Sequence record: DRR723986_1348
Strand: one strand, 5' to 3'
DNA length: 64,000 nt
Position 1 is the stretch's first letter. Every line of letters starts with the position of its first letter. The notes under the pieces were generated by a model that was not told where the DNA came from, made no database searches, and saw only the letters and a list, made by a program, of their open reading frames with translations. The position numbers and the translations under genes were made by a program. Of the stretch, positions 14,349 through 32,592 are shown one piece after another.

Positions 14349-15119
14349 CTAGGACTGTTTGGGGCCACCGTTTTCACCGGGCCAGCGAGAGCCACCGATG
14401 GTGTCGGCAAAGGGCATAAAGCCCTCGGGGTCCAGCGGGCCTTCGAGCGTGATGCGGCGGTCGAGGAAAATCGGCGTCCACAGCCATGCCTCTGCTTCCG
14501 TGCGCATAGGCAGTTTGCTGGCCAGAGGGTCCCAAGGGCTGTCATTTAGCGTGACCTGGCCCTGCAATTTCTCGATATGCGCCGTGCCGTATTTTGCGTA
14601 AACACGCACAACGTGCGGTGGGAAGTCCCAGCTGGGGTTTTCCATATCCACACCGCGCAGGTGCTTTATCCACCACTCATTCGTTTCGTGCTCCGGGGGA
14701 ATCTCGCCCTCACCGGTCACCTGCCCCTTAAACTCCAGGAAGGTATATCCGCGGTGGCTCACCTTTGCTGATACATAGTCCATCAAGCGGAAGTACTGGG
14801 TCTCTCCGTAATACTTCGGCTGCCCCCAGCGCTCGTGACTACCGTAAATTGCCGCTTCCTGATCGATAGCAATACCCAGGGTGTACTCGCCTTCAATGCC
14901 ATTGTAGTTAGCGTCAACATTCACCACGCAACCATACTCGGGCTCATTTAATACCGGGAAGTTATAAATGGTAATGGTCACGCCCGGTTCTTTACCTGGC
15001 TCAATACCGGGCGGTAAAAGTTTCGCTATCGCCTCAGCATCCGTTTTATAGCGAATTTTTAGCATCGGCCAGTTGAGAATATCGCCGGGCTTACCCATAG
15101 GGGCGTTGGAGTCAGTCAT
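14349..15119 (-). CDS. Acetoacetate decarboxylase-like (ADC superfamily) protein
   Basis: AIAKLLPPG motif and ERWGQPK carrying the Schiff-base Lys position. Confidence 0.8.
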   Translation of the reverse strand: MTDSNAPMGKPGDILNWPMLKIRYKTDAEAIAKLLPPGIEPGKEPGVTITIYNFPVLNEPEYGCVVNVDANYNGIEGEYTLGIAIDQEAAIYGSHERWGQPKYYGETQYFRLMDYVSAKVSHRGYTFLEFKGQVTGEGEIPPEHETNEWWIKHLRGVDMENPSWDFPPHVVRVYAKYGTAHIEKLQGQVTLNDSPWDPLASKLPMRTEAEAWLWTPIFLDRRITLEGPLDPEGFMPFADTIGGSRWPGENGGPKQS

Positions 15120-15169
15120 GGTAGTTATTCCTCGTTATTATGGTTTTGGGACGGGTTAAGCACCGCGAT

Positions 15170-16144
15170 CTACGCCGCGTAAAATTGCTCAAACCACTTA
15201 CGGTATTTTGCGATCGGGCCGTCGCCATCACACAGCGTGGGGTGCTCCAGATACACTTTGTTTTCCCAGATAGGGATATCCTGACCGACTTGGCGAACGA
15301 TCTCGTCGCGGAAGGCATTGGCGTATAGGGTGTGCTCACCACTCTGCTGTTTAGGCATAGAGAAGTTAAAACGCATGTGAATGTTCTGGTCGTCGATAGG
15401 TGTGATGGTGCCCATCATGACAATATCGAACATGCGAGAGAATTTTTGGTAGGTTTGTCCCGGACCAAATGAATAGGTTTCCAGACGCCCCTGGTCATAG
15501 TTCTCGCCACTCAGGTCTACATTACCCTCTTCATCGATGGCGTGCTGTAGGCTGTCCATCAGCGTGCTGCGTTTGTAACCGTCGATGGTGACGTGACCAT
15601 CCGGCATTTCCGGAGACTCATGAACGGTCACAAAATGCGCGATGTCCACGGCATTTTCACCGGTCTCCTGAATGATCGAGTTAATCTGCCAGTCGAAGAC
15701 ATCCATCTCCGTCCACTCGTCGGAGTGCAGCTCGGCGTGGCGCTCAACTTCCCACAGCGGCGCCACCCCTTGGGGGTGATACCAGGCCCAAATCATTTGA
15801 TTCAGCTCCACCACAGGGTAGTTGCCAATTGCCTGCTTGCCGTCGACTTTAGGCGGCATATTTTTCGCGTAGGGCACCTTGGTACAAAAGCCCTCGCCAT
15901 TAAATTCCCAGGCGTGGAAGGGACAAGCGATGCTCTCCCCCTTTACCTGACCACCGTGCCCCAGGTGGGCACCCAAGTGCGGGCAGTGGGCGTCTAGCAA
16001 TACTGCCTCACCCGATTCCGTGCGAAACAGCACGAGGTCCCGGCCGAAATACTTCAGCGGCTTCACATCCTTAGGGGCGAGCTCTTTGCTGTACTCAATG
16101 GCAAACCAGCCGCATGGGATGGGCTTCTTATATCTATTATTCAT
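15170..16144 (-). CDS. Rieske non-haem iron oxygenase (KshA/Neverland-like)
   Basis: CPHLG...CPFHAW Rieske motif; ENAVDIAHFVTVH mononuclear Fe motif; QDIPIWENK; ATG 16144 with GGAGG SD. Confidence 0.88.
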   Translation of the reverse strand: MNNRYKKPIPCGWFAIEYSKELAPKDVKPLKYFGRDLVLFRTESGEAVLLDAHCPHLGAHLGHGGQVKGESIACPFHAWEFNGEGFCTKVPYAKNMPPKVDGKQAIGNYPVVELNQMIWAWYHPQGVAPLWEVERHAELHSDEWTEMDVFDWQINSIIQETGENAVDIAHFVTVHESPEMPDGHVTIDGYKRSTLMDSLQHAIDEEGNVDLSGENYDQGRLETYSFGPGQTYQKFSRMFDIVMMGTITPIDDQNIHMRFNFSMPKQQSGEHTLYANAFRDEIVRQVGQDIPIWENKVYLEHPTLCDGDGPIAKYRKWFEQFYAA

Positions 16145-16260
16145 TCTCCCTCCTGACCCTTCTCTCAAAAAGGTAACCGTGATGTAAAAAAAGTATACGG
16201 TTTCCCTATTTCGGTCAAGCGAGAGCAGCGGAGAAATGATTACTGATTGGTAAGGCGGGA

Positions 16261-16298
16261 AAAGAAAAGTGCTGACATCGGTCTACCGATGCCAGCAC
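16261..16298 (-). terminator. Intrinsic terminator after the TetR gene
   Basis: 13-bp stem GTGCTGGCATCGG/CCGATGTCAGCAC followed by TTTTCTTT on the minus strand. Confidence 0.8.
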
Positions 16299-16308
16299 AG
16301 CGGCGCTT

Positions 16309-16968
16309 TCAGGCAAGCATGCTGCTTTTTATAAAGGCGAGTAATTGACGATAACGGGTTTCTGAATCGTAACTTTCATCGTGCACCCAGTTCAGCGTGA
16401 TGGCATTGAACATGCCCACGGTCATTTCCGCACAGAAAGCCGGACTCAGCTCCGGCTTTAAGGCCTGGCGATTGTGCTCATACAAACGCAGGAAGCTGCT
16501 GTTAATAAAGGCCAGCTGCCCCGCGCCCTGGCTAATATTCGCCGACATTGCGCCGACTGAATAGGCGATCAGCTCGCGCTCGATACCGCCCGCCAACTGC
16601 TCGCGATTAATAAACACCTCAATGATGTGACCGAGCTGTTGCTCAAAAGATTTACCGCTGGCCAGCACATCGTCAATCAATTGATCGGTGCGTTGCAGCA
16701 ACTCCTCCTGACACAGCTCCACCATTAAGTCGTGTTTGGTCGCGTAGTAGTTGTAAAAGGTTTTCTTGGCGATATCCACGCAATCACAGATCGCATCGAT
16801 GGTCAGCCCGTCTACCCCATGGCGGCCGATCAAGCGCAATGTCTCTTTACGAATGGTCTCGCGCACGGCCTTTTTTTTGCGCTCTCGCCGACCAAGCTGA
16901 CTCGCTGGCACCGATGATTCTCCCATCTCTGTCAAAGCGTCGAATGGTAGCGTAAGCCGGTCCGTCAA
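16309..16968 (-). CDS. TetR/AcrR family regulator
   Basis: RRERKK, then HTH TIDAICDCVDIAKKTFYNYYATKHDL; start uncertain (TTG 16968 or ATG 16926). Confidence 0.9.
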   Translation of the reverse strand: MTDRLTLPFDALTEMGESSVPASQLGRRERKKKAVRETIRKETLRLIGRHGVDGLTIDAICDCVDIAKKTFYNYYATKHDLMVELCQEELLQRTDQLIDDVLASGKSFEQQLGHIIEVFINREQLAGGIERELIAYSVGAMSANISQGAGQLAFINSSFLRLYEHNRQALKPELSPAFCAEMTVGMFNAITLNWVHDESYDSETRYRQLLAFIKSSMLA

Positions 16969-16979
16969 GCGAATGCCTC

Positions 16980-17858
16980 CTACAGTACGTTTGGCGGCGT
17001 TGGCGTTACGCCATTGAGAATGCCCTGGGTGCGCTCAATAAAGGCGGCCCGGGACTTCTCCGACATTGGGGTAATCCAAAACATCTCTTCGCGCAGCCCG
17101 TTGAGCGCAAACGCAGCAACTTCTTCCGGCTCGGTGGTTTTCAACTCCATATCGTATTGCGCCATGATCGCCTTCATATCATCGACCGAGTGAATACCTG
17201 AATCGGGCTTATTCGGGTCGACGGGCAAATCCTCAGGACGATTGCGCTCAGAATTAAAGATGCCGGTATTCACCACATGTGGGCCGGGAAACAGGGCATT
17301 GACCTTCACCGGCGATTGCTGGGCCTGCAACTGAAAATGCAGGTTTTCCGTAATCGCCTGCGCCGCTGCCTTGGTCGCGGTGTAGATCGGCGTATCCGGT
17401 AACATTAAGAACGCGCCATTCCCCGAGCCAGTCACCACAAAGTGTGCCTCTTCACCCTGCTCCACCAAGCGGGGAACAAAGGCGTTAATGGTGTTAATCA
17501 AGCCCCAGGTATTTACCCGGAAGCCCCACTCCCAATCATTGGCGCTGTACTCCCACATATTGCCGCCTTCGCCCGTCCCCACACCGGCGTTGGCAAAAAC
17601 GAGGTGCACCCCGGAAAAGTGGGCAAACGCCGCCTCAGCGAGGGCAGCCATCGACTCTGGCTGCGTAACATCGGCGCGTTGCGCCAAACACTGGGCTCCG
17701 CGCTCCTCCAATTCCGCTTTGCAGCGCTGCAAAGCATTTTCTTCGATGTCGGCAATCACCAACTTGGCTCCCTCATCGGCAAGCGCGAGCGCCAATGCGC
17801 GCCCCACACCACTGGCCCCGCCGGTGATTACCGCTACCTTGTCTGTAAAGTTTTGCAT
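16980..17858 (-). CDS. Short-chain dehydrogenase/reductase
   Basis: TGGASGVG, ANAG and YTATK motifs; AAGGAG SD. Confidence 0.9.
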   Translation of the reverse strand: MQNFTDKVAVITGGASGVGRALALALADEGAKLVIADIEENALQRCKAELEERGAQCLAQRADVTQPESMAALAEAAFAHFSGVHLVFANAGVGTGEGGNMWEYSANDWEWGFRVNTWGLINTINAFVPRLVEQGEEAHFVVTGSGNGAFLMLPDTPIYTATKAAAQAITENLHFQLQAQQSPVKVNALFPGPHVVNTGIFNSERNRPEDLPVDPNKPDSGIHSVDDMKAIMAQYDMELKTTEPEEVAAFALNGLREEMFWITPMSEKSRAAFIERTQGILNGVTPTPPNVL

Positions 17859-17920
17859 TACCACTCCTTATTGTTATCGCCGCAACGCGCGGTAAATTAA
17901 AAATAATGTCACTTGAGAAT

Positions 17921-17944
17921 AAAAATACACGGTAGTATATTTTT
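17921..17944. promoter_or_regulatory. Putative TetR operator between the divergent SDR and P450 genes
   Basis: AAAAATACAC-GGTA-GTATATTTTT, an inverted repeat with 9/10 matching positions. Confidence 0.55.
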
Positions 17945-18012
17945 TCGCAAACACCGATATTTTTGCGAGCCGTTGCGGCGGTGCAAAACAATAAAGATAA
18001 GGAGTGTACGCA

Positions 18013-19260
18013 ATGCAAACCACTGAACAGCGCGAGCTGCCCCCGATCGAATCTGTCTTCAATCCCAATTCCATGGAATATGCCTTGGACCCCGGCCCGC
18101 AGTGCAAGGCACTTTCCGAGCGCGGTCGCTTGGTGTGGTATGCCCCCTGGATGTGCTGGATTATGACCCGCATGCCCGACATTATGGATTGCTGGAAGAA
18201 TGAGTACCTGAGCTCAGACTTTTACGACTGGGAGTTTGCGCCGCCACGGCCACTGGAAGAAAACTGGAATAACTTCGAGCGCGCCCTGGTGGGCCACAGC
18301 CTGCTGGCTGACCCGGACCACCACCGCCTTATTCGCAAAATCACCTCCCCGGCGTTTTCTCGCAATGTTGTTGATAACATCAACCGACGCATCGAGCCCG
18401 ATATCGTCCGCCTTTTCGAGGGCTTAAAAGACGCCGATGAATTCGACTACATTGAAGATGTCGCGCGGCACATCCCCTTCATCTCCATCACTCGCATGGT
18501 GGGTATTCCAGAAAAATACTGGCCCCAGATCAAGCAAACGGTGCTGACCTTTACCGAAACCTGGAACCCGACTATTTCCGACGAGCGCCGGGAAAAAGCC
18601 CAGCAAGACAGCAACCTGGCCATCGATATCTTGCTGGAAGTCATCGCCGAGCGCCGCCTGTCACCCGTAGGCGAAGAGGACTTCCTCAGCGCGCTGCTGC
18701 AAGTGGAAGCGGAAAACGACGACTTCGACGAGTGGGATATCGTTACCCTGATCCTGGCATTGATCGGTGCCGGCGCCGACACTACGTTGATGGCACAGCA
18801 GTGGTCGGCCTATGCCTTTTTGAAGAACCCAGATCAGATCCCCCTGGCATTGGAGTCTACCGCCACCTTCTCTAACGCCTTTAGCGAAATTATGCGCTGG
18901 GCAGGCAACTCGAAAATGGGCTTTGCCCGCTACGTTCCGGAAGACCGTGAACTGCTTGGACAACAGGTGAAGAAAGGGCAAATGGTGCTAATGATGCCCC
19001 ACCTAAAAGATCACGACCCCGATTTTTTCGACGACCCCTATCGCCTGGATGTACGCCGCGAGTTCAATCCAGACGTACTCTTTGGTTATGGCCCTCGCTA
19101 TTGCATCGGTGCCGCGCTGGCAAAACATCAGTTGTACTTGAGTATGCGCGAGTTTTTCCGCCAGTTCCCCAACGCTACATTAGCAGAGGAGCCCGAGCGC
19201 GACCTGGAGGACCACAACTCCATTAGCTTTAAATCCCTGCGGGTAAAAACCAACCGCTAA
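18013..19260 (+). CDS. Cytochrome P450
   Basis: I-helix AGADTT, ExxR (EIMR), haem motif FGYGPRYCIG. Confidence 0.95.
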   Translation: MQTTEQRELPPIESVFNPNSMEYALDPGPQCKALSERGRLVWYAPWMCWIMTRMPDIMDCWKNEYLSSDFYDWEFAPPRPLEENWNNFERALVGHSLLADPDHHRLIRKITSPAFSRNVVDNINRRIEPDIVRLFEGLKDADEFDYIEDVARHIPFISITRMVGIPEKYWPQIKQTVLTFTETWNPTISDERREKAQQDSNLAIDILLEVIAERRLSPVGEEDFLSALLQVEAENDDFDEWDIVTLILALIGAGADTTLMAQQWSAYAFLKNPDQIPLALESTATFSNAFSEIMRWAGNSKMGFARYVPEDRELLGQQVKKGQMVLMMPHLKDHDPDFFDDPYRLDVRREFNPDVLFGYGPRYCIGAALAKHQLYLSMREFFRQFPNATLAEEPERDLEDHNSISFKSLRVKTNR

Positions 19261-19355: not shown

Positions 19356-20780
19356 ATGACCCCAGTCCGCTCTAATCATGTCGGCATAGCCCTCCTCCCG
19401 CTATGCTTGGTTCTCGGCCTGCTTGGTCTCAATGTCTATCTCTATGGCGATGCCGGTATAGAAGGCCCCAACCAGCTGGCACTGCTGCTAGGGGGCGGCG
19501 TCGCGGCCGTTATCGGCCTGCAACGCGGCCGCTCCTGGCAAACCCTGCAAGATGGCATGTTGAAAGTGATCGGCGTTGCGATCATCCCCATCTTAATGTT
19601 GTTTATGATTGGCGCGCTGTCCAGCACCTGGACGGTCGCCGGTATCGTACCGACGCTTATCTACTATGGATTGCAGCTGGCCGACCCCAGCTGGTTTTAT
19701 GCTGCCGCGGCAATTGTCTGCGCCATTGTGTCAACGGCCATTGGCAGTTCCTGGACCACGGCGGCCACCATCGGCATTGCCATGATGGCAACCGGGGTGG
19801 GACTCGGTATGAGTGAAGCCATCACCGCTGGCGCCGTCATCTCTGGCGCCTACTTTGGCGACAAGCTCTCTCCCCTTTCCGATACCACCAACCTGGCCGC
19901 AGGTGTGTGCAATGTCGAGTTGTTCAGTCACGTGCGCTACCTCGCCCTCACCACACTGCCCTCGTTTGCCATTGCCCTGCTTATTTTTGTTGGGCTGGGT
20001 ATACACCACAGCAGTGGAAGGGAGGTCGCCGAGACGCAAGCGATTATGAATGCCTTGAGCACCAGCATGACCCTGTCGGGCTGGCTATTGCTTGCGCCGC
20101 TGCTCGTCGTTGTCATGATCGTAAAACGCGTTCCGGCGCTGCCCGTGATGTTTATTGCAACGCTCATCGGCACGGTGATCTCCGCCTATGTGCAGCCGGA
20201 ATTGGTCTATCAAATTGGTGGCGAGCGTTCGGCAAGCGGGCTGTACAAGGGGCTGGTGCAAACCATTGTAGGAAGTAGCGAGATCATCACCGGTCACAGC
20301 TTTAGCGATACCTTGCTGGCCAGCAGCGGCATGGCAGGCATGCTCAATACAATATGGCTTATTTTAAGCGCCGTGGTTTTCGGTGGCATGATGGAAGCCT
20401 CAGGCTTGCTCGGCGACATTACAAGCGGACTAAAAAGACTGGCGCGCAGCCGAACGTCGCTCGTGGCAACCACGGCTGGCAGCTGTGGGGTGCTCAATCT
20501 CACGGCGGCCGAACAGTATTTGACCATTCTTATTGGCGGGCGAATGTATGGCGACATGTACGCCCAGCAGGGGCTGAGTCAGCGCAACCTCAGCCGCACG
20601 CTGGAAGACGCCGGAACCGCCACCTCAGTACTGGTTCCCTGGAACACCTGCGGCGCATTTCATGCCACCGCCCTCGGCGTTGCAACGCTCAGCTACCTGC
20701 CCTTTTGCTTTTTTAATTTGATCAGCCCCTTTATGTCGATGCTGTATATGCGCTTCAACATTGCCATAGAAGAGACTTAG
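19356..20780 (+). CDS. nhaC: NhaC-family Na+/H+ antiporter or solute transporter
   Basis: GSSWTT, SGAYFGDKLSPLSDTTN and LSRTLEDAGT...PWNTCG motifs. Confidence 0.88.
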   Translation: MTPVRSNHVGIALLPLCLVLGLLGLNVYLYGDAGIEGPNQLALLLGGGVAAVIGLQRGRSWQTLQDGMLKVIGVAIIPILMLFMIGALSSTWTVAGIVPTLIYYGLQLADPSWFYAAAAIVCAIVSTAIGSSWTTAATIGIAMMATGVGLGMSEAITAGAVISGAYFGDKLSPLSDTTNLAAGVCNVELFSHVRYLALTTLPSFAIALLIFVGLGIHHSSGREVAETQAIMNALSTSMTLSGWLLLAPLLVVVMIVKRVPALPVMFIATLIGTVISAYVQPELVYQIGGERSASGLYKGLVQTIVGSSEIITGHSFSDTLLASSGMAGMLNTIWLILSAVVFGGMMEASGLLGDITSGLKRLARSRTSLVATTAGSCGVLNLTAAEQYLTILIGGRMYGDMYAQQGLSQRNLSRTLEDAGTATSVLVPWNTCGAFHATALGVATLSYLPFCFFNLISPFMSMLYMRFNIAIEET

Positions 20781-21532
20781 TCGCAGCGCGTATAACTTAG
20801 GCAGCGCTCTCCCAGCCACTGCCAATACACCGTAAATATACAGCCCCTTGGCAAGGCCAAACCCAGCGCGGAGCGCGGCTTGAACTGGAGCGTGCGCCGC
20901 TCCGGATCGACTGCGATAACACGCACTTCGGAAAAGTCGATGTAGCGCTGCAAGCGAGGGAACAGCGCTTTGTACAAGCTCTCTTTGGCAGAAAACAGCA
21001 GCGTTAACGCGCGATCGCGAGGCAACATAGAGAGCCGCTGCCATTCCTTGTCATCACCCACCAAGCGCCACAATTCGTCAATAGCATTGCTGGCGACTAA
21101 TGGCTCAATATCGATCCCCAAATGCCCTCCACGTCCGACCACGCACAGCGCGCTATCGTCGCAGTGGCTGATGGAGCCGGTAATCCCCTGCGGCCATATG
21201 ACCTCGCCGGTATCTCGCCTTGCCGGGCTGTGATTCTCTACGTTTTCTATACCCAGCGCATAACAAGCAGCATAACGACCGGCAAGGAATTGCGCCTGGC
21301 GCGCGGCGGACACCCGCGCCAAAGAGGCTGGCAAAGCAATGCCCCAAGACGCCAACAGGTCTGGGGTATAACGGTTTTGTTTAAAACGACAATGCACCGC
21401 GTTAACTGCCAATTCGGGCATTGGCAGCAACGAAACCTGCTCGATAAATCCACCTGCGGGCAGGGGTGATGACAAGCTCAGCGTGTCCGCGCCACTATTG
21501 CGCAAGGCTGGGCTCGGCAAGGTCGCGATCAA
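20777..21532 (-). CDS. 4'-phosphopantetheinyl transferase (EntD type)
   Basis: FLAGR, WPQGITGSISH, LGIDIE and FSAKESLYKA motifs; start approximate (TTG overlapping the glycosyltransferase end). Confidence 0.92.
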   Translation of the reverse strand: MIATLPSPALRNSGADTLSLSSPLPAGGFIEQVSLLPMPELAVNAVHCRFKQNRYTPDLLASWGIALPASLARVSAARQAQFLAGRYAACYALGIENVENHSPARRDTGEVIWPQGITGSISHCDDSALCVVGRGGHLGIDIEPLVASNAIDELWRLVGDDKEWQRLSMLPRDRALTLLFSAKESLYKALFPRLQRYIDFSEVRVIAVDPERRTLQFKPRSALGLALPRGCIFTVYWQWLGERCLSYTRCD

Positions 21533-22808
21533 CGGCGGGGCTTAGCTCACTGACGGGGGTCAGGTAGCCCCATTTGGACAACTGCGCGATGGCCGCCGCC
21601 ACGCCATCTTCGGCGCGAATTTGCGCGCCCACCGTGGCTGCGCGCTGACGCAGCGCCGCGTCGGTTGCCGACTCAATGGCCTGCTCAACATCCGCGACAT
21701 TCAAACTCTTGCGATCCAGTGAACGGGTGGCTACCCCAAGTTGCTGCAAGCGCCACGACCAAAATGGCTGGTCGCCAAAAAACGGCATAATTATCGACGG
21801 AATCCCCGCCCTTGCCGCTGCCGCCGTCGTACCCGCCCCGCCGTGGTGAATGGCCGCCGCCACTCGCGGAAACAGCCAGTCGTGCGGCGCCGATGTCAGG
21901 CAGTACACATTGTCGTCGTCGACATCTGCCAAGCCTCCCCAACCGGTGGCAAAAATGGCGCGGCGGCCACTATTTCGCAGCGCCTGTAAAAACACCTCAC
22001 TGAGCGCCGCACTGTCATCACCGAGCATACTGCCAAAGCCGACATAAATGGGTTTGTCCCCGGCGGCTAAAAAGGCTTCCAGTGATTCCGGCGCCTGCCA
22101 CGTCTGAGCTTCGTCGAGAAACCAATTACCCGCTACCCGCACCGACTCCGGCCAATAACGCGATGGCGGAATAATGCTCGGGCTAAACCCATACAACACA
22201 TGGTGAGTCCGACGCCGCCGGTAAAACGGCCCGTACCAGGGTAGTGGCGCCAAGTTGAGTTTTTGACGAACCTGACGGTAGGCCGGGCTGAGCATCTGCC
22301 AGGTCAGCACGCGACAGGCGTGATACAAGCCTTGGTTTACCATACCGGGACGCGGGCGGCGCGGCGGTGGCAACATCATCGGCGGAATATCAGGACACGG
22401 TGTCACCGGTTGCAAGTGGGTCTCGACCACCGGAATGTCATAGCGCTCGCCAATGGCGGCGGCCAGCGAGGCCACCATGCCACAGCCCAACAATAAGTCA
22501 GCCCCATTCGCCGCCTGCGTGGCCTGTGTGACCCAGTCTGCAGACATTGCCAACAACTCCCGCCGCGCGGTGCGCAAAAGCGCAACGGGGTTCAGGCCGC
22601 GCTGAAGTACTTCCGGGTCCTTGGCCATCAACTCCAAAAAGTCGGCGGTCAGCGGCGCGTAATCGAGGCCATGACGACGCACCAACTGTTCACAGCTGTC
22701 GCCTGTGACAATGCATACTTGATGCCCCTGCGCCTGCAAACCCAAGCCTAGCGCGACAAAAGGGCGGACATCTCCCTGGGTGCCGATGGAGAAGATCGCG
22801 ATTTTCAT
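21495..22808 (-). CDS. Family 1 (sterol/lipid-type) glycosyltransferase
   Basis: GTQGDVRP, YVGFGSM, APHDWLFP, HHGGAGTT and PFFGDQPFW motifs; ATG 22808 is 5 bp after the NRPS stop. Confidence 0.93.
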   Translation of the reverse strand: MKIAIFSIGTQGDVRPFVALGLGLQAQGHQVCIVTGDSCEQLVRRHGLDYAPLTADFLELMAKDPEVLQRGLNPVALLRTARRELLAMSADWVTQATQAANGADLLLGCGMVASLAAAIGERYDIPVVETHLQPVTPCPDIPPMMLPPPRRPRPGMVNQGLYHACRVLTWQMLSPAYRQVRQKLNLAPLPWYGPFYRRRRTHHVLYGFSPSIIPPSRYWPESVRVAGNWFLDEAQTWQAPESLEAFLAAGDKPIYVGFGSMLGDDSAALSEVFLQALRNSGRRAIFATGWGGLADVDDDNVYCLTSAPHDWLFPRVAAAIHHGGAGTTAAAARAGIPSIIMPFFGDQPFWSWRLQQLGVATRSLDRKSLNVADVEQAIESATDAALRQRAATVGAQIRAEDGVAAAIAQLSKWGYLTPVSELSPAVDRDLAEPSLAQ

Positions 22809-22813
22809 GCTTA

Positions 22814-25800
22814 TCAACCTGCCAGCGCGCGCGCAACGAAGGGTCCGATTACTGCCAGCGGTTCCGCGTCCAGCATTTGCTGGTGATGGCATTCCACCGG
22901 ATAAATATTGAGACCCGCGACGGCGTCCTGCCAGGCATCGGGGCGGTGGTGCAGCTCCTGTGACGTGGCCGTTTGCACCGCTTGGAAAAAGTGCAACTCC
23001 ACATCTACCGGCCGCGGCTGGAAGTTCTGCAGCAGCTGCAGGTTATTGCTAATCACCGCACTGACATCGTCAATTAAGGCGCTTTGTTTACCCTGCAACT
23101 GTTTGACAAATTCCAGGTTAAGCACGTCGTATTCCCGGCACAGGAGTTCACTCAGCTCCTCCATGGTATCGGGCAGCTCGCCCTCCACGGCGATGTCGAG
23201 AAATTCCAAGATGCTGCGCACCTGACCGGCCTTGTCGTCACGCTGCTGCGACACGAAGGGGTAGGAATCCAAAGCGCCAAGGAAGCTCACTGACTCGTCC
23301 AGCTCACGCAACTGACGCGCCATTTCCTGAGCGATAACGCCGCCCATCGACCAGCCCAATATACGGTAGGGGCCCTGTGGCTGGCGGTCCCGCATCAATG
23401 CAATATAGTCTGCGGCAATTTCCTCGATGCTCGCAGGAAGCTCCTGCCCGCCAGAGAGGCCACGCGACTGAATGCCAAACAAGGCCGTTCCGTCAGGCAG
23501 GTATTGATTTAGCCCCGCAAAGCCCCAGCTCAGGCCGAGTACTGGGTGAATACAAAATAGCGCGTCACCCTCGCAACGCGCGGCTAAAGGATTGAGGGCT
23601 TGCACGCCTGCCAGGGGATCTATTTGATCACCGCGCTCCAGCTGCTCCGCCAATTCAGCGATCGTCGTCGCCTCAAAGATGGCCGCCAGGGGTACGTCTT
23701 TACCCACGACATCACGCAGACGCGATACCATGCGCGCCGCGGTAATCGAGTCAGCGCCGAGGTCGAAAAAGCTATCGTGGATACCGATACGCGGTAGCTT
23801 GAAGATCTCACACCACAGCTCTGCCAGCTGCGTTTCCAACGCGTTACGCGGCGCCGTGTATTCGCTAACAAGTTGCCACTGAGGCTCCGGCAAGGCTTTG
23901 CGGTCCAGCTTGCCATTCACATTTAGCGGAAAATCATCCAGCACCTGATAGTGAGAGGGCAGCATGTATTCCGGGAGACTGCGCTCGATCTGCTGGCGCA
24001 GTGTGGCGGCCTCTAACGCGGTGTGCTGGGCATCGAAGCCCTCCTCACTGAGCAGGAACGCCACCAGCTTTGGTACGCCAGCGGGGTCGTTACGCAACAC
24101 CACTGCCGCACGACGCACACCCTGACAGCGGATCAACTGCGATTCAATTTCTTCAGTCTCTACACGAAAGCCGCGAATTTTAATCTGGAAGTCGTTGCGC
24201 CCCAGGTATTCCAGTGCACCGTCGTCACGCCAGCGCGCAAGGTCACCGGTTTTATACAACAAGCCCTCACCGTGGGGATTGGCAATAAAACGTTCGGCGG
24301 TTAAGTCGGGACGTTTGTGGTACCCCAGCGCGAGGCCCTCGCCGCCTATATACAATTCCCCGGCAGCGCCATTTGGCAACAACTGAAGATCGTCGCCCAG
24401 CACATAGACCTGCGTATTCCAGATTGGACGGCCAATGGCCGGCGTGCCGCCCTCCAGCTTGTCCAGGGTCATCATCGTGGACCAAATCGTTGTCTCTGTC
24501 GGGCCGTATAAGTTGATAATCGGCGCTCCGAGCTTACGCAGTTTGCGCGCCAGCTCCATCGGCAGCGCCTCACCGCCCACCAGCGGTTGAACACCCGTAA
24601 AGGCCTCTGCATTATCTTCAAGCAGCGCCTGCCAGTGCGAAGGCGTCGCTTGAATATGCGTGATCGCCTGCTCGTTCACCAGCGCGGCCAGCGCCGCGGG
24701 GTCTCTGGCGATGTCGCGGGTAGCGACATGGACTTGAGCACCGGCAAGCAGTGGCAAAAACATCTCTAGCACAGCAATATCAAACGACACGGTCGTTAGC
24801 GCCAACATCCGCTGCTCGGGCTGAAGTGCCAAGGCATCCTGCATGGCCAGCAAAAAATTCATCAAGCTGCGATGGCCAATCACCACGCCCTTGGGGCGCC
24901 CCGTCGAACCGGAGGTGTAAATGATGTACGCCGGGCTGTTCGCGCCAATATCAGCAAGGGGCACATCGTCGCCGGAAAAGGCGTTTAAGTTGAGCTCTTC
25001 CCACAGCAGCGTTTGTATTTCACAGTCAGGCAACTTTTCGGCGGTCTCAACGCTGCTGAGCAGCAAGCTGGGCTTTGCGTCGTCCAATATCATGGCCAGG
25101 CGCTCAGCGGGGGTTTCCGGGTCCAGCGGTAAATACGCCGCACCGCATTTCATAATCGCCAACAGCGTCATCGGCATTGCCGCGGTGCGCGGCAGGGACA
25201 CGGCCACCAACTTGCCCGGCCCTACGCCCAATACATTCAATGCCCGCGCCAATTGATTGACCTGTTGCCCGAACGCTGAATAACTCAGCGTTTGCCCGGC
25301 ATCGGATACCGCGGCGTGGCTTGGGAAAGCGGCGACACTTTTGTCAAACAACGCTGGCAAGTGGCTTTCCGGCAACGGCTGCTTGGTATCGTTCCAGGCC
25401 TGCAGCTGCAGGTGCCGCTCCTGCTCGGAGAGCAGGTCAAAGTCACCGATCGCGCCCTCAGGGGCGGCAATCATCGCTTCGATTAATCGCGCCAATCGAT
25501 CGCGGTGCTCATCGAGCTCTCGCTGACTGTAGAGCGCGGGGTTAGCGTCAATCACCACATTCATGCCCTGCTTCGCGCCGCGATCAAACACAAACACTGT
25601 CATGTCTTCTACGGTGCCATTCGACAGGTTGTGTGCACTGCACTCGTGGCCACCGAAGCCCAGGTCGTAATCAAAGGGTTCAATATTTACCCCCATCCAG
25701 GAGATCTGCTGCCCCTGTGCAAGCAGGCCGAGATCACGCCGCAACTCCTCATAGCGATACTGTTGGTGGCGAAGCGCATTCCTTACGGTTTTCGCTGTTT

Positions 25801-26869
25801 GCCCAAGCAGGTCGACGAGGCTGGCATCGTCGGCCATCGCCAGGCGAATCGCCACGGCGTTAGCCATCATTGCCGGAATGCTGCGCAGCGTGCGGTTTGC
25901 TCGTGCCGTAACCGGCATACCGAAGACCAAGTCCTGCTGCCCCGTCATGCGGTAGGTGTAAACCGCGAGCATGGCAATTAATAACTGCGGTACTGAGCCG
26001 CCATATTGCTGGGCGATGTCGCGAATTTTCGCAGAGTGCTCTAGCGACAGGGTAATACCACTGCGCCGCAGGCCACCACTGCGCTGGGCATTGCGACGCG
26101 ACAGCGAAATTGCATCGGGCAGGCCACTCAGTTGTTGCTTCCAGTAGTCTCGGTCACGCTCAAAACGTGCAGATTCGCGATAGAGCTTTTCCTGCTCCAA
26201 CTGGGTTACCAAGGGTAAAAATGGCGACTCACCTGGCTCCTCGCCACTGAGCAGCGCATTATAAATTTCCGCCATTCGGCGCGCGATCAGACCGCCACCA
26301 AAACCGTCAATGGTGATGTGGTGGCAGCGGTGGTACCAAAAAAACCGTTCATCCTCGACCTTGATTAGCGCGCTGAACCACAGTGCATCGTCTGCGAGGT
26401 CTGCGGGGCGGCGCAACTCATCGTTCATCCACCGCAATGCACGCTGCTCGGCGTCGGCATGGCTACTGAAGTCGACAACCGGCAACTCTCCCATATAGGC
26501 CTCTGCCACCAATTGGCGAGGTCCATCGGCGGTTTCAATAATCTGTACTCGCGTTGACTCCGCCTCTTGGGTCAAGATGGAAGTCGCCCGGAGAAATACC
26601 GCGGCATCAATATGGCCGCGGATATCGACATACTCGGCAAGTTTATATACCGCATCGGCGGGGCCAATCTTCTCGCCCATCCACATACCGCGCTGCGCCG
26701 TTGCAATTGGCAACAGTTGGGGAACCTGTGCCAGAGGCCTGACGGGTGAGGCTGGCAACTCAAGTGCGCCGCCTGTGGCAACTTTACCCCGGCTTATATG
26801 CAGCTCGGCTTCAAGGTCCTTTCTCAGGTACGGGTCTCGCGAATTTTGCGAGCGGGGTAACTTTTCCAT
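22814..26869 (-). CDS. Single-module NRPS C-A-T-TE, predicted glycine-activating
   Basis: C: HHITIDG; A: YTSGSTGRPKG, YGPTE, YKTGDL, NGKLDR; T: LGADS; TE: GWSMG; manually read A-domain code DILQLGLIWK; start 26869 or 26899. Confidence 0.95.
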   Translation of the reverse strand: MEKLPRSQNSRDPYLRKDLEAELHISRGKVATGGALELPASPVRPLAQVPQLLPIATAQRGMWMGEKIGPADAVYKLAEYVDIRGHIDAAVFLRATSILTQEAESTRVQIIETADGPRQLVAEAYMGELPVVDFSSHADAEQRALRWMNDELRRPADLADDALWFSALIKVEDERFFWYHRCHHITIDGFGGGLIARRMAEIYNALLSGEEPGESPFLPLVTQLEQEKLYRESARFERDRDYWKQQLSGLPDAISLSRRNAQRSGGLRRSGITLSLEHSAKIRDIAQQYGGSVPQLLIAMLAVYTYRMTGQQDLVFGMPVTARANRTLRSIPAMMANAVAIRLAMADDASLVDLLGQTAKTVRNALRHQQYRYEELRRDLGLLAQGQQISWMGVNIEPFDYDLGFGGHECSAHNLSNGTVEDMTVFVFDRGAKQGMNVVIDANPALYSQRELDEHRDRLARLIEAMIAAPEGAIGDFDLLSEQERHLQLQAWNDTKQPLPESHLPALFDKSVAAFPSHAAVSDAGQTLSYSAFGQQVNQLARALNVLGVGPGKLVAVSLPRTAAMPMTLLAIMKCGAAYLPLDPETPAERLAMILDDAKPSLLLSSVETAEKLPDCEIQTLLWEELNLNAFSGDDVPLADIGANSPAYIIYTSGSTGRPKGVVIGHRSLMNFLLAMQDALALQPEQRMLALTTVSFDIAVLEMFLPLLAGAQVHVATRDIARDPAALAALVNEQAITHIQATPSHWQALLEDNAEAFTGVQPLVGGEALPMELARKLRKLGAPIINLYGPTETTIWSTMMTLDKLEGGTPAIGRPIWNTQVYVLGDDLQLLPNGAAGELYIGGEGLALGYHKRPDLTAERFIANPHGEGLLYKTGDLARWRDDGALEYLGRNDFQIKIRGFRVETEEIESQLIRCQGVRRAAVVLRNDPAGVPKLVAFLLSEEGFDAQHTALEAATLRQQIERSLPEYMLPSHYQVLDDFPLNVNGKLDRKALPEPQWQLVSEYTAPRNALETQLAELWCEIFKLPRIGIHDSFFDLGADSITAARMVSRLRDVVGKDVPLAAIFEATTIAELAEQLERGDQIDPLAGVQALNPLAARCEGDALFCIHPVLGLSWGFAGLNQYLPDGTALFGIQSRGLSGGQELPASIEEIAADYIALMRDRQPQGPYRILGWSMGGVIAQEMARQLRELDESVSFLGALDSYPFVSQQRDDKAGQVRSILEFLDIAVEGELPDTMEELSELLCREYDVLNLEFVKQLQGKQSALIDDVSAVISNNLQLLQNFQPRPVDVELHFFQAVQTATSQELHHRPDAWQDAVAGLNIYPVECHHQQMLDAEPLAVIGPFVARALAG

Positions 26870-27041
26870 CTTCTTCGTCTCTCTGGCTAGGTATCGCACT
26901 AAACAGGAAACCTACCGACGAATCGGAAGCAGCCCCTGCTTAATTTTTTCATTTTTATTTCGGCTGTTAAGCAGCCGCATTTTTATATGTGTAAATCGCT
27001 AAGACACACAGAGATGATAAGGACATCACTAAACGACCAGC

Positions 27042-27055
27042 GTGACTTAAGTCAC
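27042..27055. promoter_or_regulatory. Perfect 14-bp palindrome upstream of the NRPS
   Basis: GTGACTTAAGTCAC within an AT-rich intergenic region of about 440-470 bp. Confidence 0.5.
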
Positions 27056-27293
27056 ACCTAAGAACATGCGGATAAGAATTTTTACTTATATTTCAATACC
27101 TTGCAGCACACTGAGACACGAGTGTGACATAGTCAATTAGCACCTAATGTGTCATAGTGTTTTTTTGAGCAATAAAACACTTGCCATACAGTCGCTTACA
27201 AATAGCTATAGGGGTTTATGCGTATATGAGTAAATAACGCCCTGCCGATGGCGCATATTTTTTGTCAATGAGGGGAAATATCTGCGGGAGAAT

Positions 27294-27313
27294 AAGGCCT
27301 GTTTCCAGGCCTT
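27294..27313 (-). terminator. Probable terminator after the sulfotransferase
   Basis: AAGGCCTG-GAAA-CAGGCCTT stem with GNRA loop on the minus strand; weak U-tail. Confidence 0.55.
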
Positions 27314-27338
27314 GAGGGAATGACGGGGGCACCCCTTA

Positions 27339-28334
27339 TCAAGCGGCGCCCAGTTCTCGCTCCACTAACCTATCCAGATGCTCGGCGTAATCGCGCAAAA
27401 CCGGATTAACGGGCCGCCCGGCAGTGACCGCTCGCATACTTTCAGCGCTGGCGCTGCGCGACACGGCCAGTAACGGCGCTAGACTCGCCATCACGGCGTC
27501 GGGGCTCTCTCGCAACGCGGAATAATCCACCTCGACCGTCTGGTCGCTCGGCATTGCCGCCAACTCGCGACGGTAGGCCGCCACTTGCTTGGCCACCGTT
27601 CGCGCCAGCAGCGGCCTTGCCAGGCGGGCAATGGCACGGCGGCCAATCAGCTTGCGTAGTCCCCGCAGTCCGAGCCATACGATATAACCGGCGCGATAAC
27701 TACGGCGCCCGTCACCACGGTCCAACAGCATTTCAAGATAGTGTTGAGGCCCCTCTAAATAGGAAAGCAGCGCGTTTAGCATGCTATTGAGCACCGCGAT
27801 AGGCTCACGGCTGATGTAAATAAACCTCGCCTCGGGGAATCGCTCCGCCATCCAGCGCGCATTGCCGGTGTCCCAGGGGTTCTTAAGCAAGACCGCCTCA
27901 CTACCGGCATGCACGGTCAACAGCTTTCGGCACATTTCCTCAAAAAACGCGGCGCTGTGCTCGTTGAGCTTAAAACTGCCGAAGCGGCGTCTGAGCAGGT
28001 AGCCGTACTCTTCAACTTCCTCGGCGGAAACGGGCACCGAGTCGATATTGCGGTCTTTAATCCCCAGCGCGGCGAAGCAGGCATTCAAGCGCTGTGCATC
28101 TTGTTTCGCACCGCCCTGCTGATGGTTGCGAAGCAGACGGTCATAGTAAAAAAAATCGTAAAGGGTTAACTGTGCCAGAGGAAAGGCCCTGGCCACACTG
28201 TCGTAGAGAAAGGTAGTGCCGGAACGGTGCAAGCCCATAATAAAAATGGGCTTCACCTTTTGCTCAGCAAGATCAGCTTTCAGTGGTGCATCTTCATCGC
28301 GTACTGGGAAATGGGGGTCAACGGGATAACGCAT
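27339..28334 (-). CDS. PAPS-dependent sulfotransferase family protein
   Basis: 5'-PSB loop IFIMGLHRSGTT, LLKNP, and 3'-PB motif FIYISREP...NS. Confidence 0.85.
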   Translation of the reverse strand: MRYPVDPHFPVRDEDAPLKADLAEQKVKPIFIMGLHRSGTTFLYDSVARAFPLAQLTLYDFFYYDRLLRNHQQGGAKQDAQRLNACFAALGIKDRNIDSVPVSAEEVEEYGYLLRRRFGSFKLNEHSAAFFEEMCRKLLTVHAGSEAVLLKNPWDTGNARWMAERFPEARFIYISREPIAVLNSMLNALLSYLEGPQHYLEMLLDRGDGRRSYRAGYIVWLGLRGLRKLIGRRAIARLARPLLARTVAKQVAAYRRELAAMPSDQTVEVDYSALRESPDAVMASLAPLLAVSRSASAESMRAVTAGRPVNPVLRDYAEHLDRLVERELGAA

Positions 28335-30072: not shown

Positions 30073-32592
30073 TTATTGAAATTGGTAGCTAAACTCTACG
30101 CCCACCTCTCGCGGCGTTCCGGGAACGCGATTGGCAACACCGATCACGCTGGTTACTGCGATCCCGCCAACAAAGTAGGGGTCATCTTTTAGGTTATTCA
30201 CGTAGGCCGATACGCCCATCTGTTCATTGATCTGCCAGCGCGCCCTGGCATTGAAAAGCTCGTACTGACCGATGGTCGAGCTCGCGTATTCACCGCTGAG
30301 GTAATCAGTACCGATGAATATTTCATCGGAATAGTAGTACTGCAGCTGTGGAATAATCAGACCAATCGGCGAGTGCCAATCATATTGCACGACAACGCCG
30401 CGAACATTTTGCGGCACCTGGGGAAACGCCTCGCCGCTGCGGTCAACAATCGCAAAGCCATCAGCGGTATTGGTACCCAGGTCATAGTCAATAAAGTCGC
30501 CGTCGGTATACCCGGCATTGGCATTGATGGTGAAATCACCCAGCAGGGCGGTAATCTCAAATTCAAACCCGTCGACCACGGCCTCGCCCGCATTGCCGGT
30601 AAACTGCACCACTTCTGTTTGAGTGGTGCCGCGCTCATAAAGCGCGACCTGTAGATCGGTGTAATCCATCTGGAACACCGCTACATTGAAACGCAGGCGG
30701 CTATCCAAGGCGTCTAATTTAAAACCGATCTCTTTGTTGACGACAATCTCAGGCTCAAACTGCTTGATCGACGAATCGGTCTGCGTCGAGCGCACATCCA
30801 AACCACCCGACTTAAAGCCCTTGCTCACGGTGGCATAAGCGATAAAGCTGTCGAGATTCAAGGACTCAAGCAGTTCATCATCAGCCAGGTAATTGAGCGT
30901 GACCGCTGGCGTAAATTCCGAGAAGCGCGTATCACCGCGCAGCGGCGCCGCATACAGCAGAGGAACCGAGGGCGCCTCATAGGCAAAATACTGCGCCAGC
31001 GGCACCGGCGAAAAGATACCGTCCATCACATGGGTGACGGGCAGCAATATTGCGGGGTTGCTGCCGATCTGGGCATTGAGCCGACTCGCGTATTCATCGT
31101 AGTCCGGCGTGCCTTGAATTTGCACCGTACTGCGCTCTTCTTCGGTATAGCGCAAACCCAATGTCAGCTGCAGGGTCTCGGTCATATCCCATGTTCCCTG
31201 CGCAAACACTGCCGCAGTGGTGTTTTCGTAGTCGGCCAAGGCAACGGCGTTGGCCTGCACGGGCAACACCAGGGCATTGGGAAGCGGAATGCCCAGATCA
31301 ACCGCAGCGCCCGGCCCTACCGCCACCAAGCCGTTGTCGCCCACCTCGGTGCCATCAATGCTATTTTCCAAACTCTCCTCGGCGTAGAACACACCAAAGG
31401 TGTAGTTCAAGGTATCGTCCCAGGCGGTGCCGTTGAATTTCACCTCCTGACTGAATTGCTCACGCACAGCATCGCCGACCGATGGATCATCAGAGCCATT
31501 GAGTACCTGATAACCGGCATCAGGACCAACCGCCACTGCACGAATCGCCGTGCCATCAGAGTCGCCACTAATTCGGATATTGTCCTGCATCGCGTAGCTG
31601 GTAATGCTCTCTACATCTATTCCCGCAACCGAGCCGCGCAAGGTGAGTGCCAGCATATGGTTGTCGATCGCATAGACCGCATCCTCCGCGGTTTGACTGA
31701 CCTTAAAGGTTTTCGCTAATTCAGAGCTCTCGTTACAGGCGGCCTGTAAATCCGAACCATCAGCCCCTCGGTAAATGCCCTGCGCAAGAATGGCACTGCT
31801 GTTTTGAAAAACGCAGTTGTAGGGTGAGCCGCGCTCATCGATGCGACTTAAAAACCCGAAGACGTCGACTTCGAACTCATCGTTGACATACCAAATCAGC
31901 CGCGATGACACCGCCATGCGGTCCTGATCAAACAGCGCATAGTCAGCGGCGACATTATCGATTGAGCCATCGCTGCGCTTGGCATTCACCGCGACACGCA
32001 TAGCGATGCTGTCGCTGAGCGGTAGGTTGGCATCGAGCTTGGCACTTTTCTGCCCGTAATTCCCCGCGCCAAGTTTTGCGCCAAATTCAAAGCCGTCGGT
32101 AAACGGTTTTTTCGAATCAACCAGTATGGCGCCACCAATATTGTTCTTGCCGAATAGCGTACCCTGAGGGCCGCGCAATACCTGTATCGACGCCACATCA
32201 ACCGCATCGAGCAGCTGGGCATCGGAGCGTGGCACGTAGACGCCGTTCAAGTACATGCCCACCCCCGGGTCCAGCACGGGATTACCCGAGCGCTGGCCAA
32301 TGCCGCGAATAAAGACCGCCGGCGCTTTGTAGTTGGTCTGCGAGAACTGCAGACTGGGCGCCAGTGTTTCCACGTCTTCAATATCGCTGATACCCATTTG
32401 CTCAAGCATATCCGAGCCCAACGCCGATACCGCCAGCGGGGTATCCTGCAGGCTCTCTTCGCGCCGCCGAGCGGTGACCACCACCTCTTCCAGCATGGCG
32501 CGATTTTCAGTTTGCGCAAAACTCGGCGCGACGCACAACGTCGATAGCGCAGACATCGCCAGCGGGAACAACACAGCTTTGTTCGTTTTCAT
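30073..32592 (-). CDS. TonB-dependent outer membrane receptor
   Basis: Signal peptide, TonB box EEVVVTARRR, plug motif VLRGPQGTLFGKN, C-terminal aromatic beta-strand. Confidence 0.93.
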   Translation of the reverse strand: MKTNKAVLFPLAMSALSTLCVAPSFAQTENRAMLEEVVVTARRREESLQDTPLAVSALGSDMLEQMGISDIEDVETLAPSLQFSQTNYKAPAVFIRGIGQRSGNPVLDPGVGMYLNGVYVPRSDAQLLDAVDVASIQVLRGPQGTLFGKNNIGGAILVDSKKPFTDGFEFGAKLGAGNYGQKSAKLDANLPLSDSIAMRVAVNAKRSDGSIDNVAADYALFDQDRMAVSSRLIWYVNDEFEVDVFGFLSRIDERGSPYNCVFQNSSAILAQGIYRGADGSDLQAACNESSELAKTFKVSQTAEDAVYAIDNHMLALTLRGSVAGIDVESITSYAMQDNIRISGDSDGTAIRAVAVGPDAGYQVLNGSDDPSVGDAVREQFSQEVKFNGTAWDDTLNYTFGVFYAEESLENSIDGTEVGDNGLVAVGPGAAVDLGIPLPNALVLPVQANAVALADYENTTAAVFAQGTWDMTETLQLTLGLRYTEEERSTVQIQGTPDYDEYASRLNAQIGSNPAILLPVTHVMDGIFSPVPLAQYFAYEAPSVPLLYAAPLRGDTRFSEFTPAVTLNYLADDELLESLNLDSFIAYATVSKGFKSGGLDVRSTQTDSSIKQFEPEIVVNKEIGFKLDALDSRLRFNVAVFQMDYTDLQVALYERGTTQTEVVQFTGNAGEAVVDGFEFEITALLGDFTINANAGYTDGDFIDYDLGTNTADGFAIVDRSGEAFPQVPQNVRGVVVQYDWHSPIGLIIPQLQYYYSDEIFIGTDYLSGEYASSTIGQYELFNARARWQINEQMGVSAYVNNLKDDPYFVGGIAVTSVIGVANRVPGTPREVGVEFSYQFQ

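Follow-up and report, generated by a model that had tools for sequence, protein, structure and literature searches.

We examined a block of four minus-strand genes in a 64,000-nt stretch of DNA from sequence record DRR723986_1348 (the window). Three of them encode one nonribosomal peptide synthetase (NRPS), a glycosyltransferase (GT) and a 4'-phosphopantetheinyl transferase (PPTase); the fourth, upstream of the NRPS, encodes a predicted sulfotransferase. With a probability of about 0.75, judged from sequence comparison, this is a Spongiibacter block whose NRPS, GT and PPTase are orthologous to ABO_1784-1782 of Alcanivorax borkumensis and would form a glycine-glycolipid pathway of the Alcanivorax type. 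A. borkumensis attaches to oil through a surface lipid, the glycine-glucolipid, and the product of the block is probably a relative of that known biosurfactant, possibly sulfated, and not wholly new. The core cluster is already known in kind. The candidate novelty is the strictly co-inherited sulfotransferase, the one feature that sets the window locus apart from Alcanivorax and that a preliminary description of this DNA had missed. The block is laid out as follows:

22814..26899, minus strand: NRPS of one module, 1361 aa (Pfam domains, catalytic motifs, A-domain code)
21495..22808, minus strand: GT1-family glycosyltransferase, 437 aa (Pfam; junction sequence read)
20777..21532, minus strand: Sfp/EntD-type PPTase (Pfam; start uncertain, TTG 21532 to ATG 21421)
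27339..28334, minus strand: sulfotransferase-family gene, conserved upstream partner of the NRPS, 331 aa (Pfam Sulfotransfer_3, PAPS motifs)
26900..27338, minus strand: AT-rich spacer of 439 nt between sulfotransferase and NRPS (conserved boxes in a five-species alignment)

The preliminary description had proposed three tightly coupled genes, and NRPS, GT and PPTase were all found at the coordinates it gave. The NRPS stop codon (TGA, 22816-22814) is followed after 5 nt by the GT start codon (ATG 22808), which confirms the 5-bp gap it described. The longest open reading frame (ORF) of the GT is 21495-22892, and ATG 22808 yields a 437-aa GT1 protein. The overlap claimed for the second junction is uncertain, as is the start of the PPTase: GT and PPTase overlap by 38 nt only with the TTG start at 21532, and the first ATG would leave a 73-nt gap. 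Alignments with PPTase orthologues start at residues 22-48, and the first ATG lies at 21421. NRPS, GT and PPTase probably form one transcript, with the sulfotransferase as its own unit 439 nt upstream.

In Pfam, the PPTase matches 4PPT_N and ACPS, and the GT matches EryCIII-like_C, Glyco_transf_28 and UDPGT; an ESM Atlas look-up with the GT returned generic GT1 clusters only. The closest solved relative of the GT is a yeast sterol 3-beta-glucosyltransferase (5XVM/5GL5, 200 bits), followed by GtfA/B/D. By similarity, its nearest solved relative is a lipid-hydroxyl glucosyltransferase, which favours a glycolipid as the likely product.

Domains and predicted specificity of the NRPS

The NRPS starts with GTG, with an alternative ATG at codon 11. 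Its condensation (C), adenylation (A), thiolation (T) and thioesterase (TE) domains were located as follows, with approximate nucleotide coordinates:

~25412-26713, minus strand: C domain, starter type (Pfam Condensation, residues 63-496, E 8.5e-65)
~23909-25348, minus strand: A domain, predicted for Gly (Pfam AMP-binding, residues 518-861, E 9.4e-89; AMP-binding_C, residues 917-997)
~23642-23830, minus strand: T domain (Pfam PP-binding, residues 1024-1086, E 1.3e-16), with Ser1051 at 23747-23749
~22817-23560, minus strand: TE domain (Pfam Thioesterase, residues 1114-1253, E 1.4e-28), with Ser1184 at 23348-23350

This Pfam order agrees with the single C-A-T-TE module proposed earlier, and no pathway module or gene lies upstream of the C domain. 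The T and TE serines had been reported as intact, and both are present, the carrier Ser1051 in LGADS and Ser1184 in GWSMGG. The NRPS also keeps the C-domain HHxxxDG motif (residues 193-199) and the TE histidine (His1338/1339). Extracted anew, the A-domain code gave the same string as before, DILQLGLIWK (residues 707, 708, 711, 750, 773, 775, 797, 805, 806 and 997), with positions placed through motif anchors that we take to follow GrsA numbering. The same code occurs in 19 of 22 aligned NRPS orthologues and DILQLGLVWK in the other 3, and the catalytic motifs are kept in all of them (22/22). The codes printed for ABO_1784 and XALc_0364 are identical to that of the window (Royer 2013, PMC3849588, Additional file 3). 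The A domain is predicted to activate glycine.

Among solved chains, the C domain (residues 1-505) scores best with RzmA-Cs (7C1K/7C1H; 267 bits, E 4e-78), followed by ObiF1 (196 bits), EntF (186), CDA-C1 (167) and VibH (125), while elongation-type C domains reach at most 72 bits. The 7C1H structure shows the lipoinitiation domain of rhizomide synthetase, which uses acyl-CoA (PMC7804268). The suggestion that the C domain is of the starter type is thus supported, as judged from solved chains, by the lipid-loading RzmA-Cs as its nearest relative. For the TE, the nearest solved relatives are Skyxy-TE (7CRN, 137 bits) and then EntF-TE (104 bits).

Host and orthology to Alcanivorax borkumensis

The window NRPS is 99% identical to that of Spongiibacter marinus DSM 17750 and 98% identical to that of Neomelitea salexigens DSM 19753, and the nearest genome compared (G001) has 51% of the sampled 31-mers in common with the window. 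Given the S. marinus identity and the 31-mers shared with G001, we assign the host to Spongiibacter (Spongiibacteraceae), and so outside the Alcanivoracaceae. The G+C content of the block fits this host (57.6%, against 55.7% for the whole window).

The NRPS of A. borkumensis SK2 (P0253; CAL17232.1 / WP_011589065.1), a member of a 90%-identity protein cluster retrieved with the window NRPS, has the same length, 1361 aa, and is 54% identical (715/1313). For the A. borkumensis GT (P0309), the cluster representative is 58% identical to the window GT. The gene order in A. borkumensis was read from metagenome contigs (L062-L065), which encode P0253 with 0 (L065), 2 (L062) or 5 (L063) differences per 1361 aa and, in L063, P0309 exactly. 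These A. borkumensis-type contigs match the window at 58% over 419 aa for the GT and 34% over 200 aa for the PPTase, and NRPS, GT and PPTase stand in the same order and orientation in both. The A. borkumensis genes are named ABO_1784 (NRPS), ABO_1783 (GT) and ABO_1782 (PPTase) by Royer et al. (2013, PMC3849588). The comparison with the Alcanivorax cluster, proposed earlier as a check, came out positive: the three genes are orthologous and agree in order, orientation and Gly code. A. borkumensis belongs to another family than the Spongiibacter host. A quick NRPS tree was built from 29 rows, 7 taken from loci and 22 being named representatives of 120 listed matches, without the unnamed ones. In it, one 15-row clade with 98% support in the SH-like approximate likelihood ratio test (SH-aLRT) unites the window with Alcanivorax, Microbulbifer and the Spongiibacter/Zhongshania rows.

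Relation to published systems

The preliminary description claimed that no such product had been described outside Alcanivorax. Royer et al. (2013, PMC3849588) had already presented the gene architecture in Xanthomonas and Bradyrhizobium, and the novelty claim is only partly right because the architecture was described in Xanthomonas in 2013. That paper sets out a C-A-PCP-TE synthetase for Gly (PCP, peptidyl carrier protein) with an adjoining GT, and predicts a product of an amino acid, a beta-hydroxy acid plus a glycosyl unit. The Xanthomonas pairs XALc_0364/0365, XCC3867/3866 and XAC3922/3921 resemble the window in their C-A-PCP-TE order, starter-clade C domain, DILQLGLIWK code and downstream GT. 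They differ from it in that the genes overlap by 4-8 nt, the PPTase lies elsewhere or is absent, and the sections of the paper on these pairs report no sulfotransferase. Xanthomonas-type pairs also form a separate clade from the window in our NRPS tree, and the homologues from Xanthomonadales (in Lysobacter, Dyella and Frateuria) share 45-48% identity with the window NRPS.

Rhizoleucinoside (Bradyrhizobium BTAi1, Bbta_4110/4109) and the variovoracins (rlpA-F) are related published products, glycosyl-oligo(3-hydroxyacyl)-amino acid or peptide lipids that are kin to the product proposed here, and their NRPSs have an N-terminal C domain and a GT1 partner (RlpC), as in the window (PMC12964202). 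They differ in their sugar, which is rhamnose and not glucose, and in having a terminal reductase and leucinol or a dipeptide in place of Gly with a TE, an MbtH partner, a second rhamnosyltransferase, and alpha- or betaproteobacterial hosts (PMC12964202). EntF is likewise a C-A-T-TE enzyme with an EntD-type PPTase, and its C and TE domains rank fairly high among the solved structures compared (186 and 104 bits), but the enterobactin EntF/EntD system has a Ser code and no GT1 or sulfotransferase partners such as those of the window.

Among the matches listed in a literature search, 'glucolipid' was not linked with Zhongshania, Spongiibacter or Microbulbifer, an unrelated mouse study aside, and a broader search gave nothing relevant. 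By term search, the accessible text of a 2025 Zhongshania genomics paper (PMC12216289) mentions neither NRPS nor biosurfactants.

Co-inheritance of an upstream sulfotransferase

The gene at 27339-28334 matches Sulfotransfer_3 in Pfam (E 2.2e-16), and no NCBIfam family matched it. Two motifs, GLHRSGTTFL (residues 34-43) and ISREPIAVLNS (174-184), are invariant among 14 orthologues, and we take them to be the 5'-PSB and 3'-PB motifs that bind 3'-phosphoadenosine 5'-phosphosulfate (PAPS). When an AlphaFold2 (AF2) model of the protein (predicted local distance difference test, pLDDT, 87.7) was used as a Foldseek query against the PDB, the 18 listed matches at E<=0.001 were all sulfotransferases. 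They were led by STF1 of M. tuberculosis (2ZQ5, E 1.4e-7) and STF9 of M. avium (2Z6V, E 8.8e-6) with template-modelling (TM) scores of 0.5-0.58, and STF1 and STF9 are only 16-17% identical to the window protein. By motif and modelled fold, the product is a predicted PAPS-dependent sulfotransferase.

The distribution of the block was surveyed in the GTDB genus of G001, which takes in genomes labelled Spongiibacter and Zhongshania. Full-length NRPS orthologues of 48-99% identity were found in 18 of the 25 genomes searched, one of them truncated by a contig end, and three further genus genomes carry an orthologue, giving 21/28. The sulfotransferase occurs in the same proportion, 21 of 28 genomes, in one copy each and always within ~700 nt upstream of the NRPS. 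Exactly the same 7 genomes (G002, G003, G013, G016, G020, G022 and G023) lack both genes, and two of them are only 76-78% complete. At 20 loci with flanks, drawn from 19 genomes, the GT follows the NRPS every time (20/20), the PPTase comes next at 17 (it was not found in L025, L026 and L028), and a sulfotransferase-family gene precedes the NRPS at 19, with L025 as the exception. When the ORFs of 7 loci were clustered, only four families were common to at least 5 of them, namely the sulfotransferase, NRPS, GT and PPTase, and the sulfotransferase-NRPS linkage outlasts turnover of the outer flanks. The pathway is a vertical, genus-wide trait of Spongiibacter/Zhongshania (21/28 species genomes). 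The exceptional locus L025 (G009:C1:797700-815700) is a second NRPS-GT pair in a genome labelled S. tropicus, 52% and 58% identical to the window and with the same Gly code; neither a sulfotransferase nor a PPTase lies alongside.

The sulfotransferase family is narrow, with 112 proteins at E<=1e-10 among 5.8 billion. Representatives that bear a name belong to Spongiibacter, Zhongshania, Microbulbifer and Gynuella, together with two metagenome bins labelled only Pseudomonadota or Gammaproteobacteria. Several of these relatives share their contig size with NRPS or GT matches, for example 27,331 nt in a Microbulbifer sp., which suggests that the Microbulbifer sulfotransferase adjoins the GT/NRPS. 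Adenosine 5'-phosphosulfate (APS) kinase was present in 5/5 genus genomes tested; it is non-discriminating because it is found in carriers and non-carriers alike.

Spacer and transcript coverage

The spacer between sulfotransferase and NRPS was aligned across five species with a coding identity of 67-99%. A box TGTGACTTAAGTCAC (27056-27042, minus strand) has invariant TGTGA-N6-TCAC ends in this alignment and is a candidate site that resembles the CRP/Vfr consensus. Immediately upstream, a second block, CATTGAAATATAAGTAAAAATTCT, is conserved as well. A sigma-70-like candidate site was read from the sequence:

26970-26943, minus strand: sigma-70-like candidate site

The promoter call is weak because the promoter scan was not above shuffles (4 found, 4.5 expected), and the terminator scan likewise did not exceed them.

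Four RNA-library runs match the stretch at 95% or more. One, a metatranscriptome, yields a single 6,602-nt contig with 108 differences that covers 20392-26993, and with it the NRPS, GT and PPTase genes, and the other three yield pieces of NRPS and GT. The pieces from runs X16 and X17 are identical, and the two runs may represent the same data set. These contigs neither prove a single transcript nor exclude DNA carry-over. They give almost no cover at 27242-28324 (sulfotransferase), although missing contig cover says nothing on expression. Contigs of three runs end at 26949/26950, which is a weak hint at most of a 5' end.

Proposed pathway and alternatives

The pathway we propose is read from domains and orthology at every step. 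The PPTase would arm the carrier Ser1051, and glycine would be activated and loaded by the A domain. The starter C domain would then N-acylate Gly-S-T with an (R)-3-hydroxyacyl thioester; either a ready-made oligo-ester may be loaded or further 3-hydroxyacyl units may be esterified on the enzyme. The TE (Ser1184/His1338-9) would free the lipo-glycine with its carboxylate free, and the GT1 enzyme would add a hexose to the free 3-hydroxyl of the distal fatty acid, giving a glycosyl-(3-hydroxyacyl)n-glycine surface lipid. In a sixth and least certain step, the co-inherited PAPS-type sulfotransferase would sulfate the sugar or a free hydroxyl, yielding a more anionic variant. We hold this sulfation of the glycolipid to be possible, at a little below even odds. 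It predicts a lipid that is 80 Da heavier and more acidic, with different surfactant properties.

Several points weigh against this reading. The Alcanivorax cluster reportedly makes the glycine-glucolipid, a result attributed to Cui et al. in 2025, and the papers and reviews that cite it contain no gene-level detail in their accessible text. As late as 2023 the glycine-glucolipid pathway was described as still unelucidated (PMC10710537). Not every member of the NRPS family need make a glycolipid, because one orthologue (L061, described below) stands beside FecCD-type genes with no GT. The remaining points concern the sulfotransferase. It is set apart from the NRPS by the 439-nt spacer, presumably as its own unit, and the 6,602-nt RNA contig with the three core genes stops at 26993 without it. 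In the A. borkumensis-type contigs, neither the 7 kb upstream of the cluster nor the 5 kb downstream holds a sulfotransferase homologue, and the glycolipid scaffold therefore does not need one. A sample of the order contains sulfotransferase homologues of 38-43% identity in 5 genomes of another family (f56), and in the three of these genomes that were examined the homologues are surrounded by his or fab genes, without an NRPS or GT in the vicinity. Finally, the co-presence of sulfotransferase and NRPS (21/21 versus 0/7) may stem from few gain or loss events because the genus genomes are kin.

The separate unit, the Alcanivorax-type contigs and the f56 homologues fit a plain unsulfated glycine-glucolipid, as in Alcanivorax, beside a sulfotransferase that is simply syntenic and acts on another substrate. 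This alternative is a serious one, though we would not call it probable. It has to account for a single-copy sulfotransferase that adjoins the NRPS in 21/21 carriers and in 0/7 non-carriers, for a linkage that persists despite differing outer flanks, and for Microbulbifer, where sulfotransferase and GT are both on 27,331-nt contigs, their adjacency being only suggested.

The product could also be a glycosylated mono-N-acyl-glycine that lacks the oligo-ester chain and serves in membranes or signalling instead of as a surfactant. The least that a Cs-A(Gly)-T-TE enzyme would make is N-acyl glycine, and the block has no RhlA or PhaC-like gene to build ester-linked oligomers. We consider this unlikely, as the same three genes are present in Alcanivorax, whose lipid is composed of glucose and four ester-linked 3-hydroxy acids with an amide to glycine (PMC10710537, figure legend), and the Zhongshania cassette has 71-88% protein identity to the Alcanivorax one.

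It is very improbable that the sulfotransferase turns a beta-hydroxyl into a leaving group, as the sulfotransferase-thioesterase (ST-TE) pairs of CurM and olefin synthase (OLS) do, so that the lipid is desaturated or decarboxylated. Fold and sequence comparisons did match the CurM ST (4GBM) and the olefin-synthase ST (4GOX), and the substrates would bear beta-hydroxyacyl groups, but the best matches are the free-standing STF1 and STF9 and not domains embedded in polyketide synthases, the window sulfotransferase is unfused to a TE, and nothing further speaks for this role.

A siderophore system of the EntF/EntD kind, catecholate or other, with an IroB-like glycosyltransferase, to which the top NCBIfam models (EntF, MxcG, EntD), the frequent label 'enterobactin synthetase component F' among homologues, a TonB-dependent receptor at 30073-32592 and the Marinomonas-labelled orthologue beside FecCD/ABC/binding-protein genes might point, has hardly any chance of being correct, since no model reaches its cut-off (EntF 740 bits against 2400; EntD 88 against 169), the A-domain code is for Gly and not Ser, the C domain is nearer to lipid-loading Cs domains than to EntF, the TonB receptor is kept beside the block in only 5/20 loci, all of them close relatives, no ent-type genes flank the cluster, and the 2,3-dihydroxybenzoate (DHB)-AMP ligase TIGR02275 is above cut-off in 0/5 genus genomes (control: 2/14 reference genomes). 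A catechol siderophore in particular is made unlikely by the absence of DHB-AMP ligase from these five genus genomes, the lack of flanking ent-type genes and the TonB flank in 5/20 loci. The best genus matches to TIGR02275, at ~229 bits, are ordinary acyl-CoA ligases. In five genomes (G001, G005, G009, G010 and G015), this profile gives 21-43 acyl-CoA-ligase-like matches per genome, counted as matches and not as genes; their abundance suggests a metabolism oriented towards fatty acids or hydrocarbons.

Probable transfer of the cassette into Alcanivorax

In the NRPS tree, the A. borkumensis row lies inside the Zhongshania branch as sister to P0146 (labelled Z. aliphaticivorans and encoded in L022, G025), with 100% SH-aLRT support, and a reduced tree of 20 rows, with 9 outgroup or duplicate rows dropped, places Alcanivorax in the same way. 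An approximately unbiased (AU) test rejects monophyly of the 12 Spongiibacter/Zhongshania rows without Alcanivorax (delta lnL 432.65, p 2.7e-37), for a group that was named after the tree had been seen and with quick trees. The A. borkumensis and Zhongshania (P0146/L022) proteins are 83% (1129/1363) identical for the NRPS, 88% for the GT and 71% for the PPTase. At the DNA level, L022 and the A. borkumensis-type contig L063 are 79-80% similar, but only over the stretch that opens 30 nt ahead of the NRPS start and closes with the end of the PPTase; their flanks are unrelated, and the sulfotransferase lies outside the similar stretch. The cassette in L065 has a G+C content of 47.4%, against 52.1% and 51.8% in its flanks (~52%), whereas the Zhongshania cassette, at 47.8%, is like its own flanks (46.9% and 47.6%) and the Spongiibacter block is host-like. 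Just upstream of the NRPS in L063 (cassette region L063:4836-13268) lies an IS3-type transposase (HTH_Tnp_1 + rve), where the window has the conserved sulfotransferase instead. L065 and L063 share the same 18 kb at 99.7%, and the Alcanivorax-labelled members seen all fall within one 90% cluster. Given its nesting in the Zhongshania branch, Zhongshania-like G+C content and adjoining IS3 transposase, the Alcanivorax cassette appears to be imported, and the most economical explanation is that a Zhongshania-like donor passed the three genes to the A. borkumensis lineage.

We tentatively extend this to a wider picture, which we judge possible and somewhat short of likely, in which Spongiibacter, Zhongshania and probably Microbulbifer make a sulfated glycine-glycolipid and the Alcanivorax cassette is a recent Zhongshania-like import without the sulfotransferase. 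If that is true, the sulfo-glycolipo-amino acid would be an undescribed class of anionic marine biosurfactant with the sulfotransferase as its dedicated tailoring enzyme. The genus-wide occurrence of the pathway means that more marine bacteria are expected to make surfactants of the glycine-glycolipid class, and the evidence for import bears on how hydrocarbonoclastic specialists gained their oil-adhesion chemistry. Known biochemistry is extended by this, not overturned. Zhongshania is described as degrading alkanes and as forming blooms on crude oil in cold seas (PMC8478444).

Wider distribution of the genes

At 45-55% identity, the NRPS family is broad and carries the labels Microbulbifer, Marinomonas, Gynuella, Terasakiispira, Lysobacter, Dyella, Frateuria, Luteimonas, Zavarzinia, Nitrospirillum, Telmatospirillum, Allorhizobium and Agrobacterium vitis; the GT list is similar. 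GT orthologues (E<=1e-30) occur in 15 of 401 genomes sampled evenly across the order, comprising all 11 sampled from the genus and 4 others. In these four (G412, G332, G334 and G279, the last with a 50% match), no NRPS adjoins the GT, and GT homologues outside the genus are uninformative on the pathway because they are stand-alone genes without an NRPS.

Locus L061 (G279:C1:3891000-3910999; labelled Marinomonas sp. THO17) holds a C-A(Gly)-T-TE orthologue of 45% identity. Around it lie a PPTase, a major facilitator superfamily (MFS) gene and FecCD, ATP-binding cassette (ABC) and periplasmic-binding genes, and more than 1 Mb separates it from this genome's GT homologue. By gene content, this context looks like a siderophore system. 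At two of the f56 loci (L117:7099-9008 and L118:7116-9047), the sulfotransferase homologue is convergent to a conserved 291-295-aa ORF without a Pfam match.

Neighbouring genes

Downstream of the block, the region 14349-19260 holds a P450 gene (18004-19260, plus strand), a short-chain dehydrogenase/reductase (SDR) gene, a TetR regulator, a Rieske/KshA-like oxygenase and an acetoacetate-decarboxylase-family gene, and resembles a gene set for oxidising steroids or hydrocarbons. The P450 gene remains near the block in close relatives and in L024.

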